Shown: piece by piece, positions 1 to 5,710 of the stretch | How the letters are laid out: each line of letters starts with the position of its first letter | Position numbering within the stretch: position 1 is the first letter of the stretch | Virus record (IMG/VR): IMGVR_UViG_3300045988_007535 | Span: 1-5,710 of that record | Source: a virus | Length of the DNA: 5,710 nucleotides | Reading direction: 5' to 3' (one strand) | Notes under the pieces: model-generated | Databases searched by the model: none | What the model saw: only the letters and a program-made list of their open reading frames with translations | What the model was told of the DNA's origin: nothing | Position numbers and translations under genes: made by a program

Positions 1-55
1 AAATCTGACCCTGTGGAAATCAGCCTAGTAGGCGATGCACCGGTATTTGGGTATA
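1..55. repeat. Terminal direct repeat, copy 1. Assembly overlap that marks a circular genome.
   Basis: AAATCTGACCCTGTGGAAATCAGCCTAGTAGGCGATGCACCGGTATTTGGGTATA at 1..55 is identical to 5656..5710. The offset of 5655 is divisible by 3, and the capsid reading frame continues across it. Confidence 0.95.
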
Positions 56-1002
56 GCACCATCCAAGATACCGCCAAAATAACAGATAAAATAATCCTGA
101 ACCAACCGTGGCCAGCAAACAGCACAACGGATTTTCTAAACACGGAAAAAGGGGGAAAACTGACAGGAAAAGGCGTACAGGATGGAGGCAACTACACTGC
201 AGAAGCATTCCTAAAAGCAGACCTCAGCAATGTTACAGGAATCAGCATTGCAGACCTACGCATGAGCATCGCACTGCAGCACATTTTCGAAGCCGATGCA
301 CGCAACGGCACGCGATACCGCGAGTTCCTTTCCGGCACATGGGGCGTGACAAGCCCGGACAGCCGTCTGCAGATTCCTGAGTACATCGGCGGACAGCGCA
401 TCCCAATCAACGTAAATCAGGTTGTACAGACAAGCCAAACGGACCCGACGACCGGACAGGCACTAGGCAATACGGCAGCATACAGCCTGACCACATGCAG
501 CAAGCAGATGGTGGACTATGCAGCAACTGAGTACGGCTTCATCATTGGTTTGGCGGTGGTACGAGTAGAACACAGCTACCAGCAGGGACTTGCGACCAAG
601 TGGACACGCGGCGGGCGGTTCACATACTACGACCCACGTCTGGCAGCACTGGGCGAACAGCCGGTGTACAACCGTGAAATCTATGCACAGGGCACAGCCG
701 AAGATAACGAAATCTTTGGCTACCAAGAGGCCTGGGCGGACTACCGCTACAAGCCTTCTTACGTAACCGGTGAAATGAGGTCTAACTACCAGACAAGCCT
801 TGACGCATGGCACTATGCAGACGATTATGACGCACTTCCGCGTCTCTCGGCAGAGTGGATTCAGGAAGGAACACAGAACATTGACAGAACAATTGCAGTA
901 ACAAGCGCAAAAAGCCATCAATTCTTGTGTGACTTCTACTTCACAGAAGATTGGTACCGCGAAATGCCTATTTACAGCATTCCCGGCATCGAAAGAATCT
1001 AA
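1..1002 (+). CDS. VP1: Major capsid protein VP1 (phiX174 F homologue), C-terminal part. Continues from 5014..5710 across the circular junction; stop TAA at 1000..1002.
   Basis: Frame 1 is open from base 1 (KSDPVEISLVGDAPVFGY...). The same peptide is encoded at 5656..5710, in frame with ATG 5014. The joined ORF is 1644 nt (547 aa), typical for Microviridae capsid proteins. The ORF-track start at 13 (GTG) is internal. Confidence 0.93.
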   Translation, partial: KSDPVEISLVGDAPVFGYSTIQDTAKITDKIILNQPWPANSTTDFLNTEKGGKLTGKGVQDGGNYTAEAFLKADLSNVTGISIADLRMSIALQHIFEADARNGTRYREFLSGTWGVTSPDSRLQIPEYIGGQRIPINVNQVVQTSQTDPTTGQALGNTAAYSLTTCSKQMVDYAATEYGFIIGLAVVRVEHSYQQGLATKWTRGGRFTYYDPRLAALGEQPVYNREIYAQGTAEDNEIFGYQEAWADYRYKPSYVTGEMRSNYQTSLDAWHYADDYDALPRLSAEWIQEGTQNIDRTIAVTSAKSHQFLCDFYFTEDWYREMPIYSIPGIERI

Positions 1003-1012
1003 GAAAGGAGGA

Positions 1013-1038
1013 AGCCCCGCAAAAGCGGGGCTATTTTT
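1013..1038 (+). terminator. Factor-independent terminator/attenuator between VP1 and VP2
   Basis: Perfect 8-bp GC-rich stem AGCCCCGC (1013..1020) / GCGGGGCT (1025..1032) with an AAAA loop, followed by ATTTTT (1033..1038). It starts 11 nt after the VP1 stop. Confidence 0.75.
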
Positions 1039-1040
1039 GA

Positions 1041-1898
1041 ATGGAGACATTATTAAAACTTTTGCCATCACTCATGCAAGGACTGAGCATGCTAACAGGC
1101 ATCATAACAAGCAGTAACCAGAGCGGCGCCAAGAACAGCCAAGGAGCCGGCAGCGAGAGCAGCACAGGCAGCGAGACCACAACCGGCAGCATAACAGGAC
1201 CACAACAGATAGGCGCAACACAAATCAGCACACCAACAGGCGTCACAACATTCGGCAACCAAAGCAGCGTAAACACCGCAAACGCACTGCAAATGATGAG
1301 CGGACTGCTGAGCAACCTCGCAAATGCTGGAAGCCAAGCAAGCGCCAAGAAGTACAACAGTGCAGAAGCGGCAGCAGAACGAGCGTTTCAAAAGGAAATG
1401 CGCGGGACAGCCTATCAGGACACCGTAAAGGACATGATCGCAGCGGGCATCAATCCTATCCTAGCAGCGACCAACGGCGCAACAAGCGCACCATCGGGAG
1501 CATCTGCAAGCATTGGAAGCCAACGTTATAACCAGCAGAGCGCACAGGCTGCAAGCGTATCCGCAATGTACGAATATGGCAACAACACGGCAGAGCTGGC
1601 AGACAAATACTTACAGCTGGCAAAACAGGCCACCAGCGCAAAACAATTTAAAAATGCGAAAAGCTGGGAACAGGCAGCGAGCGAGCTGGCAACCTCAAGC
1701 GCAAAACAGGCGCAACAGTACACCTATGCAGCTAGCAAATTAGGTGCAGGCCTTGCGGGAGCCGGCAAAGCAGCCAAAAAAGCAGCAGAAAAGGCTGGCA
1801 AAGCAGCCAAAGACACAGCTGGAAACTTCAAAAAATACAACCAAAGAGTACCAATCATGCCAAACATGGACGCATTCAACGCATACAGAGGAGACTAA
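1041..1898 (+). CDS. VP2: VP2 minor capsid / DNA pilot protein (phiX174 H analogue)
   Basis: 285-aa ORF directly downstream of the capsid gene. It has a hydrophobic N-terminus (METLLKLLPSLMQGLSMLTGII) and a long Ser/Thr/Gly/Gln-rich low-complexity segment. The block EMRGTAYQDTVKDMIAAGINPILAA matches the conserved (S/G)TAYQ...AG(L/I)NP.LA motif I recall from gokushovirus-type VP2 proteins. The tail is Lys/Ala-rich. Confidence 0.82.
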   Translation: METLLKLLPSLMQGLSMLTGIITSSNQSGAKNSQGAGSESSTGSETTTGSITGPQQIGATQISTPTGVTTFGNQSSVNTANALQMMSGLLSNLANAGSQASAKKYNSAEAAAERAFQKEMRGTAYQDTVKDMIAAGINPILAATNGATSAPSGASASIGSQRYNQQSAQAASVSAMYEYGNNTAELADKYLQLAKQATSAKQFKNAKSWEQAASELATSSAKQAQQYTYAASKLGAGLAGAGKAAKKAAEKAGKAAKDTAGNFKKYNQRVPIMPNMDAFNAYRGD

Positions 1899-1904
1899 GA
1901 AAAG

Positions 1905-1934
1905 GAGGGGGATGGCAAAACATCCCCCTTTTTT
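1905..1934 (+). terminator. Factor-independent terminator after VP2
   Basis: Stem GGGGGATG (1907..1914) / CATCCCCC (1921..1928), extendable by A1906-T1929, with loop GCAAAA. A run of six T follows (1929..1934). It begins 7 nt after the VP2 stop. Confidence 0.8.
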
Positions 1935-1961
1935 AGTAACAATAATCCAAAAAATAAAGAA

Positions 1962-2133
1962 TGTGGAAAACTTGAGTTTTCAACACTTTCAACAGGTTTT
2001 CAACAACAAGTTGCACAAAGAAATTCGTCAAAATGACGAACATTCAACAATTCAACAAGTTTTCAACAAAGTTTTCTACAGGCAAAAAGGCAATAAATAA
2101 ACGTAGTAACGTAAAAAAAACAAGTTTTCAACA
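1962..2133 (+). repeat. Iteron-like array of TTCAACA / GTTTTCAACA units in the VP2-rep intergenic region
   Basis: TTCAACA starts at 1979, 1988, 1999, 2043, 2051, 2062 and 2127. The extended form GTTTTCAACA starts at 1976, 1996, 2059 and 2124. The 14-mer ACAAGTTTTCAACA occurs at 2055..2068 and 2120..2133. The first unit has an inverted partner: TGTGGAAAAC(1962..1971)-TTGA-GTTTTCAACA(1976..1985), 9 of 10 positions complementary. Confidence 0.85.
2024..2040. promoter_or_regulatory. Perfect inverted repeat / hairpin between the two TTCAACA triplets
   Basis: TTCGTCA (2024..2030) - AAA - TGACGAA (2034..2040): 7-bp perfect stem with a 3-nt loop. It lies between the repeat cluster at 1979..2005 and the cluster at 2043..2068. 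Confidence 0.6.
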
Positions 2134-2194
2134 GTTTCCACGCTACTACTACTACGACTACAACAAGTTAATATAAAAAGAAAGCGAGGTGTCA

Positions 2195-2229
2195 ACCGGC
2201 ACAAGATAGACAAGGAGGCTTGTGCCGGT
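2195..2229 (+). promoter_or_regulatory. 11-bp perfect hairpin carrying the rep Shine-Dalgarno sequence in its loop
   Basis: ACCGGCACAAG (2195..2205) is the exact reverse complement of CTTGTGCCGGT (2219..2229). The 13-nt loop ATAGACAAGGAGG contains AAGGAGG (2212..2218). The 3' arm covers the GTG at 2222, and ATG 2237 lies 8 nt after the stem. Confidence 0.65.
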
Positions 2230-2236
2230 AACAAAA

Positions 2237-3226
2237 ATGCCATGTACAAAACCATTAGTATTTCAGATGGATACGAAAAAACCGAAACTGTGGGGAAGTC
2301 TGGAAAACCTATCAAAGCAAGAACTGCAAGCGAACATCATGGACGGAGTCAAAAAAGGAAAATACGCATTGTTACCATGCGGTAAATGCGAGTACTGCCG
2401 CAAACAGATGGCAGACCAATGGGCAACAAGAATAGAGCTGGAGGCCAAAGAGTGGGACGATGTGATTTTTCTGACGCTAACTTACGATGATGAGCACATA
2501 CCTTACGGCGAAATTATCAAAGGATACCAGAGCATCCAAAGCCAAACTGTAAGCAAACGAGACGTGCAGCTATTTATGAAACGTCTACGGAAAGCATACA
2601 AGAAGCCGATAAAATACTTTTTAGCGGCAGAATATGGCGACAGAACAAAAAGACCACACTATCATGCTATAGTATTCGGATTAAAGCCACCGGATGCACA
2701 ATGGTATAAAAACCAAAAAGGCAACAGCTATTTCAAAAGCGAGTGGCTACAAAAAATCTGGGGCAAAGGCATGATAGACTTTTCACCAGCACAGCCGGGT
2801 AGCTTTGCATACGTGGCACAATACGTCAACAAAAAAGCCATAGGTGCAGAGCAAGCGGCAAAATACTGGATGGAAGGCAGAGAGCCAGAGTTCCGAATCA
2901 TGTCGAAAGGCATCGGCGAAAAGTATCTGAACGAACACAAAGATGAAATCTTGAAAACAGATAGCATCATATGCGCAGGAGGGCGCGAGAAAAGGCCTCC
3001 ACGCTATTTTGATAAGATTCTAGATAAGGATACCAGCCAAGACACAGAAAACTATTTTAAGGCACATTCTGACGAGCTGAGAGAGGTTAGAGCCAGACGC
3101 AGACGCAGTGCGATACAAAGTTTAGTAAATCTCGAACAGTCTACAAGCGTGGATTATGAAACCTATCTAAACATTCAGAGGGAAAAGGACAAGCTAAAGC
3201 AAAAATGGCGTGAACCGAAAGCATGA
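2237..3226 (+). CDS. VP4: Replication initiation protein VP4 (HUH rolling-circle endonuclease, phiX174 A-like)
   Basis: All three RCR motifs are present: FLTLTYDD (motif 1, from about 2468), RPHYHAIVFG (HUH motif, His146 codon at 2657) and FAYVAQYVNKK (paired tyrosines YxxxY, codons at 2810 and 2822). The last is almost identical to YVAKYVNK, as I recall the phiX174 A sequence. A Cys cluster PCGKCEYCR is typical of microvirus VP4. The ORF is open from GTG 2222. I prefer ATG 2237 because it gives the MPCxxP N-terminus common in VP4 proteins, but the start is ambiguous. Confidence 0.93.
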   Translation: MPCTKPLVFQMDTKKPKLWGSLENLSKQELQANIMDGVKKGKYALLPCGKCEYCRKQMADQWATRIELEAKEWDDVIFLTLTYDDEHIPYGEIIKGYQSIQSQTVSKRDVQLFMKRLRKAYKKPIKYFLAAEYGDRTKRPHYHAIVFGLKPPDAQWYKNQKGNSYFKSEWLQKIWGKGMIDFSPAQPGSFAYVAQYVNKKAIGAEQAAKYWMEGREPEFRIMSKGIGEKYLNEHKDEILKTDSIICAGGREKRPPRYFDKILDKDTSQDTENYFKAHSDELREVRARRRRSAIQSLVNLEQSTSVDYETYLNIQREKDKLKQKWREPKA

Positions 3227-3233
3227 CGCGCAC

Positions 3234-3303
3234 AGCGCTTATAATGAATGGATTAGCCGCATTCCGCTTTAGCTCCATGCGGCAGAGCGCTAAAGCGCTT
3301 TTC
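3234..3303 (+). other. Structured non-coding segment after rep, with nested palindromes. Possibly a weak terminator and/or an ssDNA structural element.
   Basis: Three copies of the self-complementary hexamer AGCGCT (3234..3239, 3286..3291, 3294..3299). A 7-bp hairpin GCCGCAT (3256..3262) / ATGCGGC (3277..3283) has a 14-nt loop. A short hairpin AGCGC-TAAA-GCGCT (3286..3299) is followed by TTTC. Confidence 0.4.
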
Positions 3304-3358
3304 AAACCAAAGGAGCAAAACCAGCAACTAATATATCAATCTATTTTCTTAAAAAACC

Positions 3359-3387
3359 TTGACTTTTTCCCAAAAAAATGGTAGAAT
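3359..3387 (+). promoter_or_regulatory. Strong sigma70/sigmaA-type promoter with extended -10
   Basis: -35 TTGACT (3359..3364), a 17-nt spacer, TG at 3379..3380, and -10 TAGAAT (3382..3387). This gives TGgTAGAAT, an extended -10. An A/T-rich UP-like tract (TATTTTCTTAAAAAA) lies just upstream. The predicted start near 3394 is immediately before AGAAAGGAGG (3396..3405). Confidence 0.75.
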
Positions 3388-3413
3388 ATAATCACAGAAA
3401 GGAGGCCACAAAA

Positions 3414-3596
3414 ATGGCTGAACAAAAAAAATACAAGTTCTTAGTAGTGGTAAACCACGACGACTGCACCAACACAAAAGAGCTGCAAAGCATGACGACA
3501 AAAGAAGCAAGAAATTACGCAAGTAAACTTGCACAATTACGCGGGATTGATTCTGTTGAACTTTACCGTATTGACAAAACAGAGATTTTTGCATAA
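3414..3596 (+). CDS. Hypothetical 60-aa protein, first gene after the strong promoter
   Basis: ATG 3414 lies 8 nt after AGAAAGGAGG (3396..3405), so the ORF-track start at 3378 would be upstream of the predicted transcript start. Sequence: MAEQKKYKFLVVVNHDDCTNTKELQSMTTKEARNYASKLAQLRGIDSVELYRIDKTEIFA. I recognise no family motif. A terminator follows immediately. Confidence 0.7.
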   Translation: MAEQKKYKFLVVVNHDDCTNTKELQSMTTKEARNYASKLAQLRGIDSVELYRIDKTEIFA

Positions 3597-3600
3597 AATA

Positions 3601-3640
3601 AAGACAGACGACCAATATTGGTTGTCTGTCTTTTATATTT
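3601..3640 (+). terminator. Factor-independent terminator after the 60-aa ORF
   Basis: 14-bp stem AAGACAGACGACCA (3601..3614) / TGGTTGTCTGTCTT (3619..3632) with one G-U pair and loop ATAT, followed by a T-rich tract TTTTATATTT overlapping the 3' arm. Confidence 0.8.
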
Positions 3641-3660
3641 AAAAGAAAGGAGATAACACA

Positions 3661-3777
3661 ATGGCACACAGAAGCGGAGCGGGTCGAGGAGACCAGAAAC
3701 GTTTTACCCAGACTGCAAAGCGGGTAAAAAACATCAACGTCCGGCCAAAGGTCAGCCGGGGCGGCATCAGGCTGTAG
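3661..3777 (+). CDS. Small basic DNA-binding/packaging protein candidate (phiX174 J / gokushovirus ORF8-VP8 analogue), 38 aa. Absent from the ORF track because it is shorter than 60 aa.
   Basis: ATG 3661 lies 8 nt after AGAAAGGAG (3644..3652); stop TAG at 3775..3777. Translation: MAHRSGAGRGDQKRFTQTAKRVKNINVRPKVSRGGIRL, with 10 Arg/Lys in 38 residues. From memory, the C-terminal RGGIRL resembles the RGG(I/R)RF ending of the ORF8 proteins of Chlamydia phages and SpV4. Confidence 0.6.
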   Translation: MAHRSGAGRGDQKRFTQTAKRVKNINVRPKVSRGGIRL

Positions 3778-3812
3778 CTGGACAAAGGCCAAAAAAGAAA
3801 GGAGGTGGTTTA

Positions 3813-3923
3813 ATGGCACTGATTAAGGTCAAGGACGTCAAAGAAGCGATTGAACTGATGATGAGCATTCTGGAAAAGCTTGACGAGATTTACCACGCAC
3901 TGAAGAACGCGGGGAAGGAGTAA
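3813..3923 (+). CDS. Hypothetical 36-aa helical peptide, translationally coupled to the peptidase gene. Absent from the ORF track.
   Basis: ATG 3813 lies 7 nt after GGAGG within AGAAAGGAGGTG (3796..3807), the longest SD in the window. Stop TAA is at 3921..3923, 2 nt before the next ATG. Translation: MALIKVKDVKEAIELMMSILEKLDEIYHALKNAGKE. There is no transmembrane stretch, and the residue periodicity suggests an amphipathic helix. Confidence 0.5.
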   Translation: MALIKVKDVKEAIELMMSILEKLDEIYHALKNAGKE

Positions 3924-3925
3924 AG

Positions 3926-4318
3926 ATGCTGCATGAATACAGCTTATTCAATCAGGGCACCCACCAAGTAAGCGAACACTTCAAAGTGAAAGAATTTGCA
4001 CAAAAAGACTACCGGTGTGATAAAATTCTCATTGAATCAGAACTAGTAAAAGTGCTGGAAGATGTAAGAACACACTTCAATATGCCGGTGATCATCACCA
4101 GCGGATACAGAACACCAGAATATAACAAGAAAATCGGCGGTGTAAAAAACTCACAACACACAAAGGGCACAGCAGCCGACATCAAAGTGAAAACGGTGCT
4201 AGCAAGCGAAGTGCAAAGATACCTAAACCGCAAATATCCAGACAAATACGGAATAGGCAGATACAAAAACTTTACGCACATAGACGTAAGGGAAAAGAAA
4301 GCTCGATGGAGGGGCTAA
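3926..4318 (+). CDS. Zinc peptidase of the M15 / LAS superfamily (D-Ala-D-Ala carboxypeptidase-like cell-wall peptidase; endolysin candidate)
   Basis: 130 aa. Contains SGYRTPEYNKKIGGVKNSQHTKGTAADI and NFTHIDVR. These follow the SGYR....N...S.H..G.A.D and .H.D pattern of peptidase M15A/M15_3-type enzymes. Predicted Zn ligands are His78 (codon 4157..4159), Asp85 and His118. SD AAGGAG (3915..3920) lies 5 nt before the ATG. No signal peptide or transmembrane segment is evident. Confidence 0.85.
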   Translation: MLHEYSLFNQGTHQVSEHFKVKEFAQKDYRCDKILIESELVKVLEDVRTHFNMPVIITSGYRTPEYNKKIGGVKNSQHTKGTAADIKVKTVLASEVQRYLNRKYPDKYGIGRYKNFTHIDVREKKARWRG

Positions 4319-4321
4319 AAC

Positions 4322-4576
4322 ATGAAAATGACGTTCTATTGCTTCAAAGACAGCGTAACCAACGGATACAGCAATCCATTCTTACAGCTCAACAGAGCAC
4401 AGGCAATCCGAACGGCAAAATGGAAAGCCAACGAAAGCAAGGTAAACGAAATCGAAGACATCAGCCTAGTTGAACTGGGCGAATTCGACACCGAAACGGG
4501 CGAAATGTACGGCGCAGACCCGAAACAGCTGTGCAGCCTGACAGACCTCAAGGAGAAATTTGATGCTAAATCCTGA
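4322..4576 (+). CDS. Small non-structural protein, VP5-like (gokushovirus ORF5 family candidate)
   Basis: 84 aa, with GGAGG (4308..4312) 9 nt upstream. The N-terminal F.CFKDSVTNGYSNPF and central LVELGEFDTETGEMY resemble the F..D......PF ... L..(L/I)G.FD..TG pattern I recall for microvirus VP5 proteins. Size and position (before VP3 and VP1) fit. This is a memory-based assignment, not a search result. Confidence 0.55.
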   Translation: MKMTFYCFKDSVTNGYSNPFLQLNRAQAIRTAKWKANESKVNEIEDISLVELGEFDTETGEMYGADPKQLCSLTDLKEKFDAKS

Positions 4577-4988
4577 CGTAATGGTACGCTACTACGGGAT
4601 GCCAACTGAAAGAGTAGCAAACAATCCGGGCAGCAAGACTGCACCAACGTGGAAAGCAGTAAAGCGACCGAACGGCACAACCGACTACATTCAGCAGCCG
4701 GATGAGAACACATACGAGAAAATCCAGCGAGCCGGCGAGGGCTACGACCTTGCAAGCGCAATCGCAAGACTGGAAGCTGGGGACACATCCATCAAGGCAA
4801 AGAGCATGGTATACACCGAAGGAACGGACCTTGAAAATCTGCCGAAGGATATCATGACGATGCACGAAAAGGCCGAGGCAGCAGCCGAAACAATGGAACA
4901 GCTGAAACAGGTGCAACAGACCGAACAGCCGAAGCCGAAAGAGGAAGAAAAAAAGGAGGAGGTGAAGGAAAACGAACCGAAACAGTGA
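4563..4988 (+). CDS. Internal scaffolding protein candidate (VP3-like) with a Lys/Glu-rich C-terminal tail
   Basis: ATG 4563 lies 7 nt after AAGGAG (4550..4555) and overlaps the upstream gene by 14 nt. The TTG at 4560 is the ORF-track start. The ORF is 141 aa and sits immediately upstream of VP1. The segment MVYTEGTDLENLPKDIMTMHEKAEAAAETMEQL loosely parallels the VYGDFS..P.....A......A...F..LP region of gokushovirus VP3. The tail is QPKPKEEEKKEEVKENEPKQ. Confidence 0.5.
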   Translation: MLNPDVMVRYYGMPTERVANNPGSKTAPTWKAVKRPNGTTDYIQQPDENTYEKIQRAGEGYDLASAIARLEAGDTSIKAKSMVYTEGTDLENLPKDIMTMHEKAEAAAETMEQLKQVQQTEQPKPKEEEKKEEVKENEPKQ

Positions 4989-5013
4989 GAACCATTTCGC
5001 GCAAGTGCCACGA

Positions 5014-5710
5014 ATGGAACGACCGCGAAGCAAATTTGACAGAAGTCACCAACTGTTGACGACCATCAACGAAGGTGACCTAGTGCCCATCTACTGCGAT
5101 GAAGTAATTCCGGGCGATACAGCAAAAGTACGCCTGAACGGGCTTATTCGTATGAGCACACCCATCTATCCTATCATGGATAACTGCTACATGGATACCT
5201 ATTTCTTCTTTGTTCCGTGCCGTCTGTTGTGGGAACACTGGGAGAACATGTTCGGCGAAAACGATACGGACTACTGGGCAGAAAAGACCGAATACAGCAC
5301 GCCGACTTGCACAATCGGCGGCACATCCGGTCTGAATAATGGCACCATCGGAGACTACTTCGGATTGCCGACCGGAGTCGAAAAAGCAATCAAAGTCAAC
5401 GCACTTCCGGCACGCGCATACGCCATGATTTACAACGAGTGGTTCCGTGACGAAAACCTCGAAGCACCGCTAATGCTGGGATACAAAAAAACAGACGAAG
5501 GGGGAACGCAAAAAGACCCAAAAAGCATCGGGGGAATATACGCAAACGACCCGAATCACACAACTGAAACGGTTGAAGCCTCATTTTACGGCTTAAAACC
5601 GGCAAAAGCGGGCAAGTTCCACGACTACTTCACCAGCTGCTTACCGAGTCCGTTGAAATCTGACCCTGTGGAAATCAGCCTAGTAGGCGATGCACCGGTA
5701 TTTGGGTATA
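5014..5710 (+). CDS. VP1: Major capsid protein VP1 (F homologue), N-terminal part. Runs off the window end and continues at base 56 (bases 5656..5710 equal 1..55).
   Basis: My translation from ATG 5014 has no stop up to the window end: MERPRSKFDRSHQLLTTINEGDLVPIYCDEVIPGDTAKVRLNGLIRMSTPIYPIMDNCYMDTYFFFVPCRLLWEHWENMFGEN...NALPARAYAMIYNEWFRDENL...KFHDYFTSCLPSPLKSDPVEISLVG. The blocks F(D/N)(L/R)SH, G.L.P....EV.PGD, LP.RAY..I.NE..RD.NL and DYFT..LP are hallmark Microviridae capsid motifs. The ORF track misses it because no stop lies inside the window. Confidence 0.93.
   Translation, partial: MERPRSKFDRSHQLLTTINEGDLVPIYCDEVIPGDTAKVRLNGLIRMSTPIYPIMDNCYMDTYFFFVPCRLLWEHWENMFGENDTDYWAEKTEYSTPTCTIGGTSGLNNGTIGDYFGLPTGVEKAIKVNALPARAYAMIYNEWFRDENLEAPLMLGYKKTDEGGTQKDPKSIGGIYANDPNHTTETVEASFYGLKPAKAGKFHDYFTSCLPSPLKSDPVEISLVGDAPVFGY
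5656..5710. repeat. Terminal direct repeat, copy 2 (identical to 1..55)
   Basis: Exact 55-nt identity with the window start. Confidence 0.95.

Follow-up and report, generated by a model that had tools for sequence, protein, structure and literature searches.

Positions 1962-2186 of the viral DNA considered here, a stretch of 5,710 nucleotides (IMG/VR record IMGVR_UViG_3300045988_007535, positions 1 to 5,710; the whole of it is called the window below), appear to be a captured copy of the ~225-bp unwinding half of the host dnaA-dnaN chromosomal origin (oriC), which would bind host DnaA and open the DNA for helicase loading; we put the probability of this reading at about 0.62. The window represents a circular gokushovirus genome of ~5655 nt, its bases 1-56 recurring at 5655-5710, and the element occupies the spacer between VP2 and rep, the gene for the phage's own initiator (Rep, or VP4). 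Its parts carry different weight. We are highly confident that the element is made up of host-type DnaA boxes and a basal unwinding system (BUS) and is homologous to host oriC, and regard as evenly balanced the further proposition that DnaA-dependent unwinding and helicase loading would be used in phage replication. The oriC BUS is known as an element; a captured, mobile copy in single-stranded DNA (ssDNA) microviruses appears to be undescribed, and our literature search returned no paper tying Microviridae, microviruses or gokushoviruses to DnaA boxes or oriC.

A first-pass annotation of the window, made from the sequence alone, had drawn attention to seven plus-strand TTCAACA units between 1979 and 2133. 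These are confirmed at 1979, 1988, 1999, 2043, 2051, 2062 and 2127, with a single minus-strand copy at 3554, where 1.02 copies (sd 1.02) are expected over the whole window and eight were reached in 0 of 200 dinucleotide shuffles. The longer shared words are likewise as it described them (GTTTTCAACA at 1976, 1996, 2059 and 2124; ACAAGTTTTCAACA at 2055 and 2120; CAACAAGTT at 2004, 2053 and 2161, two of the boxes running into CAACAAGTT), as is a perfect inverted repeat at 2024-2040. The ACAAGTT copy that it gave for 2120 is present, but its tally was short of three more in the region (2006, 2055 and 2163) and of one beyond it (3433); and the 10-bp palindrome that it placed at 1962-1985 exists in imperfect form, the arms 1962-1972 and 1975-1985 being complementary at 10 of 11 positions. 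It had overlooked degenerate units at 2072-2080 (TTTTCTACA) and 2134-2142 (GTTTCCACG) and an inverted unit on the minus strand at 1962-1970 (TTTTCCACA). In total, 1962-2186 contains ten DnaA boxes of host type (TTTTCAACA and variants), nine of them direct and one inverted, laid out as follows.

1962-1970, minus strand: inverted DnaA box TTTTCCACA (plus strand: TGTGGAAAA), a perfect TTWTNCACA match at the left edge of the module, pairing imperfectly with box A1.
1977-1985, 1986-1994 and 1997-2005, plus strand: box block A (TTTTCAACA, CTTTCAACA and TTTTCAACA), head to tail with 9 and 11 bp spacing.
2024-2040, no strand assigned: inverted repeat TTCGTCA-AAA-TGACGAA, perfect 7+7, in spacer 1; phage-specific.
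2041-2049, 2049-2057, 2060-2068 and 2072-2080, plus strand: box block B (CATTCAACA, AATTCAACA, TTTTCAACA and TTTTCTACA).
2081-2124, no strand assigned: AT-rich spacer 2, including ACGTAGTAACGT (2101-2112), with ACGCAGTTACGT in the same place of a host oriC (locus L142).
2125-2133 and 2134-2142, plus strand: tandem boxes TTTTCAACA and GTTTCCACG, adjoining the trios; counterpart of DnaA-box 6/7 of the BUS.
2143-2160, plus strand: DnaA-trio/DRE tract CTA CTA CTA CTA CGA CTA, the complement being 3'-GAT-5' four times, GCT and GAT; conservation 0.87.
2161-2167, plus strand: CAACAAG, a phage-specific, near-invariant extension of the trio tract.
2168-2186, no strand assigned: AT-rich tract TTAATATAAAAAGAAAGCG, 19 nt and 79% A+T, sitting where a DNA-unwinding element would.

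The element-bearing set comprises 121 genomes among the matches listed, 115 from IMG/VR plus GenBank records. To judge from what relatives carry in the same positions, the TTCAACA units are DnaA boxes of the type found in Oscillospirales (gut Clostridia). Across 120 related elements the homologous slots interchange TTTTCAACA, TTTTCCACA, TTATCAACA and the canonical TTATCCACA, with variation of the 9-mer box limited to positions 1, 3 and 6; the canonical form stands at slot B3 in 25 of them, TTTTCCACA at slot A4 in 42, and GTATCAACA or TTATCAACA at slot B4 in 23. Block A columns are conserved at 0.86-0.96, the slots of relatives being TTTTCCACA or CTTTCCACA. Boxes overall (0.86-0.96) and trios (0.87) exceed the spacers (0.59-0.72; spacer 2 is weakly conserved, at 0.65, apart from its motif), a pattern suggesting that purifying selection acts on boxes and trios rather than on spacers. 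Conservation of the repeats in relatives, on which the first-pass annotation had staked its case in advance, is thus strong.

The right-hand end of the element has the make-up of a BUS, which is described as a box with at most two mismatches lying 0-16 bp from at least three trios of the form 3'-NAN-5' (preferably 3'-GAT-5'), often with a tandem second box (PMC8287927). As box standard we used TTATCCACA or the species-specific box, a second, weaker tandem box being accepted at up to four mismatches between main box and trios, and box orientation was read directly from host origins. In the window, TTTTCAACA at 2125-2133 differs from TTATCCACA at two positions and lies 9 bp before the first trio; the tandem box GTTTCCACG at 2134-2142, with three mismatches, is CTTTCAACA or TTTTCCACA in relatives; and CTA occurs four times at 2143-2154, followed by CGA and CTA, relatives having 3-6 consecutive CTA. 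Boxes and CTA share a strand and point toward the AT tract, as in six host origins (L142, L148, L166, L203, L167 and L211). With the E. coli standard box a BUS was detected in 76 of the 121 phage genomes, all 76 on the box strand, versus 3 of 2420 shuffles, and with the host-type standard box in 108 of 121 versus 0 of 2420. In relatives the module closes with a tandem pair of boxes, CTACTACTACTA... and an AT-rich run, the pair being set off from CTACTACTACTA by a short C-rich spacer in most of them. The trio strand of C. difficile reads 5'-CACCTACTACTATTACTACTATGA-3' (PMC7561715) and that of B. subtilis 5'-CTACTATTACTTCTACTA-3' (PMC10201434). The CAACAAG that follows the phage trios was not seen in host origins; its column conservation of 0.98 is the top value outside the 19-mer used for set selection, and it is a phage-specific signal, perhaps an additional weak box or a site for VP4. 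Beyond it, the AT-rich tract is longer, ~25-30 nt, in distant clades, and in hosts dnaN comes next.

The relation to host origins goes further than shared motifs. A search for three TTTCAACA units across ~186,000 species genomes gave at least 120 loci. Among the matches listed, the match fell between dnaA and dnaN in 10 loci and beside dnaA only in an 11th (L231); these 11 loci come from Oscillospiraceae, Ruminococcus, Ruminococcaceae, Eubacteriales or Clostridia metagenome-assembled genomes (MAGs) and have TTTTCAACA as their main box. Pfam identified DnaA in all four loci scanned and the DnaN beta clamp in two of them. One example of a host origin end is TTTTCAACAgtttcaacaCCCC-CTACTACTACTACTA-aacatatatac followed by dnaN; the tandem-box position holds TTTTCAACAgtttcaaca or TTTTCCACAgtttcaaca, and the trio tract is CTACTACTACTACTA in L142 and L148 and CTACTACTACGACT in L181. 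Five dnaA-dnaN regions, four from MAGs titled Oscillospiraceae and one from Ruminococcus, align with the phage element colinearly from end to end over 224-253 columns, with scores of 89-136 versus at most 58 for shuffled host sequence. Window 1962-2175 is 67% identical to L142 over 231 columns (score 136 versus at most 51 for shuffled host), 65% to L166, 64% to L148, 64% to L181 and 60% to L203. The L142 alignment takes in the left-edge inverted box, which is clade-specific (conservation 0.46 across phage columns) and is aligned with an inverted TGTGGAAAAG, as well as the spacer motif, ACGTAGTAACGT versus ACGCAGTTACGT. A profile of the phage element aligns over most of its length to host origins with E values of 1e-10 to 5e-14. 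Colinear alignment and profile match together argue that the module is homologous to host oriC and not merely similar in its motifs.

The window's copy is itself no chromosomal origin: its flanks are microvirus VP2 and rep, not dnaA and dnaN, and it is therefore a mimic or a copy. Like the dnaA-dnaN origins of bacteria (B. subtilis incC, C. difficile oriC2), it has head-to-tail boxes, a tandem pair before at least three trios, an AT-rich tract and the same strand relation (PMC8287927, PMC7561715, PMC10201434). Unlike them, it lies on a 5.65-kb ssDNA phage genome with no adjacent dnaA or dnaN and no rpmH-dnaA box cluster, adds CAACAAG and the central inverted repeat, and occurs in either orientation and in two genomic positions. 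The host is likely, on these resemblances, an Oscillospirales bacterium, and a Firmicute host fits the window's strong Shine-Dalgarno sequences, its extended -10 promoter at 3359-3387 and its M15 endolysin. Outside Clostridia, a Mesoaciditoga MAG (L189, 2629-2793) has a TTTTCAACA array ending in CCTACTACTACTA and an AT-rich run, which the phage profile matches at E 4e-13.

Among microviruses the module recurs in many genomes and is free in its placement. Against GenBank phages, megablast returned close relatives and two otherwise non-matching microviruses that are alike in this region only, one of which has the module downstream of rep and the other downstream and inverted. An exact 19-mer from block B occurs in at least 119 IMG/VR contigs, and 115 of the matches listed are microvirus genomes. 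Within the set of 121, the module is in plus orientation between VP2 and rep in 41 genomes, which form the window's clade (Rep 79-100% identical), in plus orientation but downstream of rep in 4, and inverted downstream of rep in 76, whose Rep and VP1 are 32-40% and ~40-50% identical to those of the window. An independent pattern from the opposite end of the module, CTACTACNACTACAACAAGT, added 36 microvirus genomes without the 19-mer and with the same three-block layout (27 inverted, 9 in the same orientation), so that at least 157 gokushovirus genomes carry the module, and their distant Reps are only 32-42% identical to the window's. The DnaA-trio/BUS module thus appears, from its distribution, to have been captured and moved among phage lineages with ~35% Rep identity. 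The coding strand has a very strong base asymmetry (A ~0.36, T ~0.17-0.18; A>T and C>G at VP1 third positions, in the window and 120 related genomes), and this skew, VP1 third positions included, is equal in all three module configurations. Freedom of orientation and position argues for a function on the double-stranded replicative form, and speaks against both iterons specific to Rep and a rolling-circle origin tied to one strand. No box clusters or BUS were found in phiMH2K, SpV4 or Chp2, and as such the module is not a general trait of the subfamily. Four non-microvirus matches to the 19-mer (L029, L044, L089 and L104) and 16 non-microvirus loci from a scan with the BUS tail had no arrays and were set aside as chance.

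If the element works as its make-up suggests, host DnaA-ATP would fill the boxes on the double-stranded replicative form, build an oligomer that spreads from the tandem pair to the strand of the trios, and melt the AT-rich tract, and the Firmicutes helicase loaders DnaD, DnaB and DnaI would then load the replicative helicase. DnaD of B. subtilis recognises 5'-TnnT-3' motifs (PMC10201434), and the 5'-CTACTAC-3' strand carries overlapping motifs of this form. The outcome would be a host-initiator route to open or replicate the replicative form, beside rolling circle by VP4; it might serve theta-type, Rep-independent amplification or maintenance of the replicative form, or provide a melted region for other steps, with titration of DnaA an unavoidable side effect. 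More tentatively, these gut gokushoviruses may have two replication modes, VP4 rolling circle and a DnaA-dependent mini-chromosome, the latter a plasmid-like, cell-cycle-coupled and non-integrative carrier state in Oscillospirales; in a variant of this idea, DnaA melting would license VP4 nicking at CAACAAG. On both versions an ssDNA phage would be dependent on the master initiator of its host.

Several points weigh against a captured, working half-origin. Microviruses already encode a rolling-circle initiator, and the need for a second route is unexplained. The dnaA-dnaN half of the B. subtilis origin reportedly does not suffice alone for autonomous replication or in vitro unwinding. The same is reported of that half of the C. 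difficile origin (PMC7561715). A half-origin of ~225 bp may hence not fire alone. At 19 nt and 79% A+T the window's AT tract is short and is exceeded in A+T content elsewhere in the region, and the boxes TTTTCTACA and GTTTCCACG are degenerate relative to those of relatives. Neither the near-invariant CAACAAG nor the central inverted repeat, which varies by clade, belongs to host origins, and both hint at an extra, phage-specific activity outside this model. The host set came from a pattern based on TTTCAACA, with at least 120 loci, and the host assignment is at order level only. The whole case, moreover, is argued from sequence.

Mobile replicons that recruit host DnaA through boxes are familiar: the theta origins of pSC101, P1 oriR, F and RK2 have one to few DnaA boxes beside iterons for their own initiators, and we know of no trio tract described for them. 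The phage module is like these in its recruitment of DnaA and unlike them in having ten boxes with trios and no evident theta initiator, the phage initiator being a Rep of the HUH rolling-circle type. The A site of the ABC primosome (R6K; Masai and Arai) is reportedly an ssDNA hairpin with a DnaA box, in an E. coli system; in the window's clade 1962-1985 can similarly fold on ssDNA with a DnaA box in the stem, but this hairpin is imperfect and clade-specific (0.46).

The main rival, which we consider improbable, is that the module is a DnaA sponge: the multicopy replicative form would soak up DnaA, blocking or delaying host initiation or sensing DnaA status, without productive unwinding. Loci that titrate DnaA are known (E. 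coli datA, B. subtilis DnaA-box clusters or inc regions), and plasmid-borne inc regions in B. subtilis, like datA in E. coli, block or delay initiation. Like them, the phage module packs many DnaA boxes together away from the chromosomal origin; to our knowledge, such loci lack the layout of tandem boxes, trios and AT-rich unwinding tract, and in the phages both trios and AT tract occur and are conserved. Each genome has ten boxes, which rank as the best-conserved parts, their free orientation and position are what a pure binding sink would allow, any DnaA binding brings some titration, and the half-origin may, as said, fail to fire alone (PMC7561715). For a sink, however, boxes would suffice, yet the trios and the geometry and strand of boxes and trios are kept in the 108 of 121 genomes, against none of the shuffles, mentioned above. 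Conserved trios and geometry favour, at the level of sequence, unwinding over a pure DnaA sink.

Much less likely is a transcriptional operator placing rep or the late operon under DnaA or another host regulator, for example Spo0A bound at the inverted repeat with TGACGAA. DnaA does act as a transcription factor. No sigma-70-like rep promoter was found in 1900-2240, and rep expression may hinge on local events. Both arms of the repeat carry TGACGAA, a fit to the 0A-box consensus, and TGACGAA is present in 4 of the 10 host dnaA-dnaN regions among the matches listed. The promoter geometry is not kept, however: the module precedes rep in one clade and follows it, in either orientation, in the others, and as it lies downstream in most genomes, the operator controlling rep that the first-pass annotation envisaged is not general. 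The inverted repeat also varies. A perfect inverted repeat of at least 7 bp occurs in 22 of 78 unique spacers versus ~2% of shuffles, in three unrelated sequence families; that of the window is kept in some subclades and is replaced by unrelated repeats or absent in others (the L003 subclade lacks it), and it has no counterpart in host oriC L142. The sporulation-sensing Spo0A switch floated in the same annotation retains support at the level of the motif only. TGNCGAA itself is not enriched in host origins (0.78/kb versus 0.95/kb in flanks), and TGACGAA, enriched ~3-fold, rests on 4 counts only. An operator would also leave the trios unexplained.

We give slightly less credit still to the idea that TTCAACA represents iterons bound by VP4 at a rolling-circle plus origin that would be nicked at or close to CAACAAG/TTAATAT. 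The first-pass annotation saw in the array a protein-binding platform, and its view of the region as non-coding, origin-like and possibly served by a host factor has held up; the Rep iterons and plus origin have not. Short direct repeats adjoining rep, as in the window genome, do recall the iterons that Rep recognises in rolling-circle plasmids and CRESS-DNA viruses, and the combination of CAACAAG with an AT-rich tract is near-invariant in phages (0.98) and not found in host origins. Rep iterons, however, co-vary with Rep, flank a nick-site hairpin and keep a fixed strand; the module neither co-varies with Rep nor keeps a fixed strand, and appears not to flank such a hairpin in general. Its units are unchanged across Reps 32-100% identical, occur in bacterial origins as well, and lie in either orientation on either side of rep; the module is inverted in 76+27 genomes among the matches listed with the same coding-strand skew, whereas a nick site inside it would, on inversion, switch the packaged strand. 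Nor does the array show a hairpin or other single-strand structure, 2041-2190 folding no better than shuffles (z -0.5), and a whole-window Rfam scan at E<=1 gave two sub-threshold chance hits only, with no RNA family for the module. The classical gokushoviruses Chp2, phiMH2K and SpV4 are without such arrays. The origin of phiX174 is a 30-nt site inside gene A, and CAACAAG with the AT tract faintly resembles what we take to be its CAACTTG/ATATTAAT core, a likeness that may also be counted for iterons. What remains of the phiX174-like core proposed in the first-pass annotation is a weak resemblance, CAAC..G and then an AT-rich run, together with the unusual conservation of CAACAAG; the module differs from that origin in lying outside rep, in not being fixed to a strand and in being embedded in a DnaA-trio tract.

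Very remote is a homology arm for recombination or integration at host oriC. Identity to host origins is 60-67% over ~230 bp, but this is too low for efficient homologous recombination, no microvirus genes were found at the TTTCAACA loci among the matches listed (at least 120), contigs with the exact Rep or endolysin are all genome-sized, 5.7-5.85 kb, with no sign of integration, and insertion into oriC would probably be harmful. A coding constraint, that is a small protein from the open reading frame (ORF) 1912-2100 or 2033-2176, has next to no likelihood: gene callers annotate a 62-aa ORF in some near-identical contigs, but no frame is conserved, the best staying open in 46% of genomes from the window's clade and in 21% of those with an inverted module (there antisense to all genes), the region has no PHROG match, and the ORF is not called in L267. 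Two further candidates were dropped, OmpR/PhoP/WalR-type response-regulator repeats (~10-bp phasing), since canonical DnaA boxes occupy the same slots, and an XerCD/dif attachment site, no dif-like motif being seen on reading the region and no integrated copies being found.

The remaining features of the genome, in which all genes lie on the plus strand of the window, are these.

Spanning the window ends, plus strand: VP1.
1041-1898, plus strand: VP2.
1901-1934, plus strand: G+C-rich hairpin and T run, terminator-like, 3' of VP2; left bound of the module (context only).
2195-2229, plus strand: perfect hairpin, with an 11-bp stem and the loop ATAGACAAGGAGG, 8 nt 5' of the rep ATG and outside the oriC-like module (context only).
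2237 (ATG) to 3226 (stop), plus strand: Rep/VP4.
After rep, plus strand: a 60-aa ORF, the M15 endolysin, VP5 and VP3.

The hairpin at 1901-1934 was listed by a scan as a minus-strand site only, and its plus-strand reading was made by eye from the T run. The sole strong sigma-70-like promoter in 1850-3450 is at 3359-3387 (TTGACT-17-TAGAAT with a TG extension), 5' of the small ORF at 3414. The gap in promoters 5' of rep and the terminator-like hairpin after VP2 suggest a single long late transcript and separate control of rep expression. Gene callers place the start of rep at a GTG at 2222, within the stem of the 2195-2229 hairpin; the ATG at 2237 (MPCTKP...) is backed as the true start by two relatives (L003 and L050), and with this start the AAGGAGG in the hairpin loop lies 18 nt 5' of the ATG (2219-2236). 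Most relatives have AAGGAAG or AAGTAAG instead. As DNA the hairpin folds at -13.6 kcal/mol (z -6.2), and its stem shows compensatory changes in the window's clade (GGCACAAG/CTTGTGCC to GGCGCAAG/CTTGCGCC) with the loop ATAGACAAG kept. It could be a translational control element of rep or a nick-site hairpin. When a common hairpin upstream of rep was sought as an alternative plus origin, it was found in the window's clade only, with none 5' of rep in distant clades.

Other elements near rep were seen in passing. A conserved element of ~75 nt (CGCGCACAGCGCT...GAATGGATTAGCCG...GGCAGAGCGCTAAAGCGC) lies at 3227-3300, just 3' of rep, in 20 of 121 related genomes. It is in gene sense in every carrier, unlike the DnaA module, which it adjoins in L004 and L005; its predicted single-strand structure is modest (z -1.8), and it could be tied to one strand, for instance as an origin for the complementary strand. 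Relatives also have G+C-rich palindromes of alternating purines and pyrimidines (CGCGCGTGCGCGCG...), at 1120-1170 in L004, 3700-3745 in L005 and 2980-3020 in L003. Palindromes of the CGCGCGTGCGCGCG type adjoin the 3' end of rep (in L003 they are upstream of rep), in the inverted class often lie directly against the DnaA module at its AT-rich end, and were not seen on reading the window. A 10.9-kb IMG/VR contig (L097) joins two different microvirus genomes head to tail, with only junction repeats of ~65-95 nt in common; it is probably an assembly artefact and not a prophage.

Modules of boxes and trios also turned up in larger viruses. In 18 viral contigs of 8-45 kb (L248-L265) there are clusters of the canonical TTATCCACA that end in a tandem box, a GC spacer, at least four CTA and an AT-rich run; neither dnaA nor dnaN lies within the fetched DNA. 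RecT stands beside the BUS-type module in L264 and L260, and L264 also encodes a DnaD-like replisome organiser; we infer that these two contigs are double-stranded-DNA phages. The gokushovirus module is like those of the larger contigs in its several boxes, tandem pair, CTA run and AT tract and in the lack of dnaA and dnaN; it is unlike them in that theirs use the canonical TTATCCACA and not the TTTTCAACA type, and the contigs are not microviruses. Origins built on a BUS may be frequent among double-stranded-DNA phages, and phage use of the BUS may be broader than the gokushoviruses.

Microviruses are textbook rolling-circle replicons, for which their own Rep and the elongation enzymes of the host are thought to be enough. 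If the captured-origin reading is correct, ssDNA phages would engage DnaA, the master initiator of their host, and this would open to study the maintenance of the replicative form, persistence and the shut-off of host replication in an abundant and uncultured part of the human gut virome. The module offers a sequence-based prediction of the host (Oscillospirales) for phages without a cultured host, and a compact natural substrate of ~225 bp for the basal-unwinding model outside a chromosome. It would also show that phages can capture DnaA-trio/BUS modules, which move between their genomes into varied positions and orientations.

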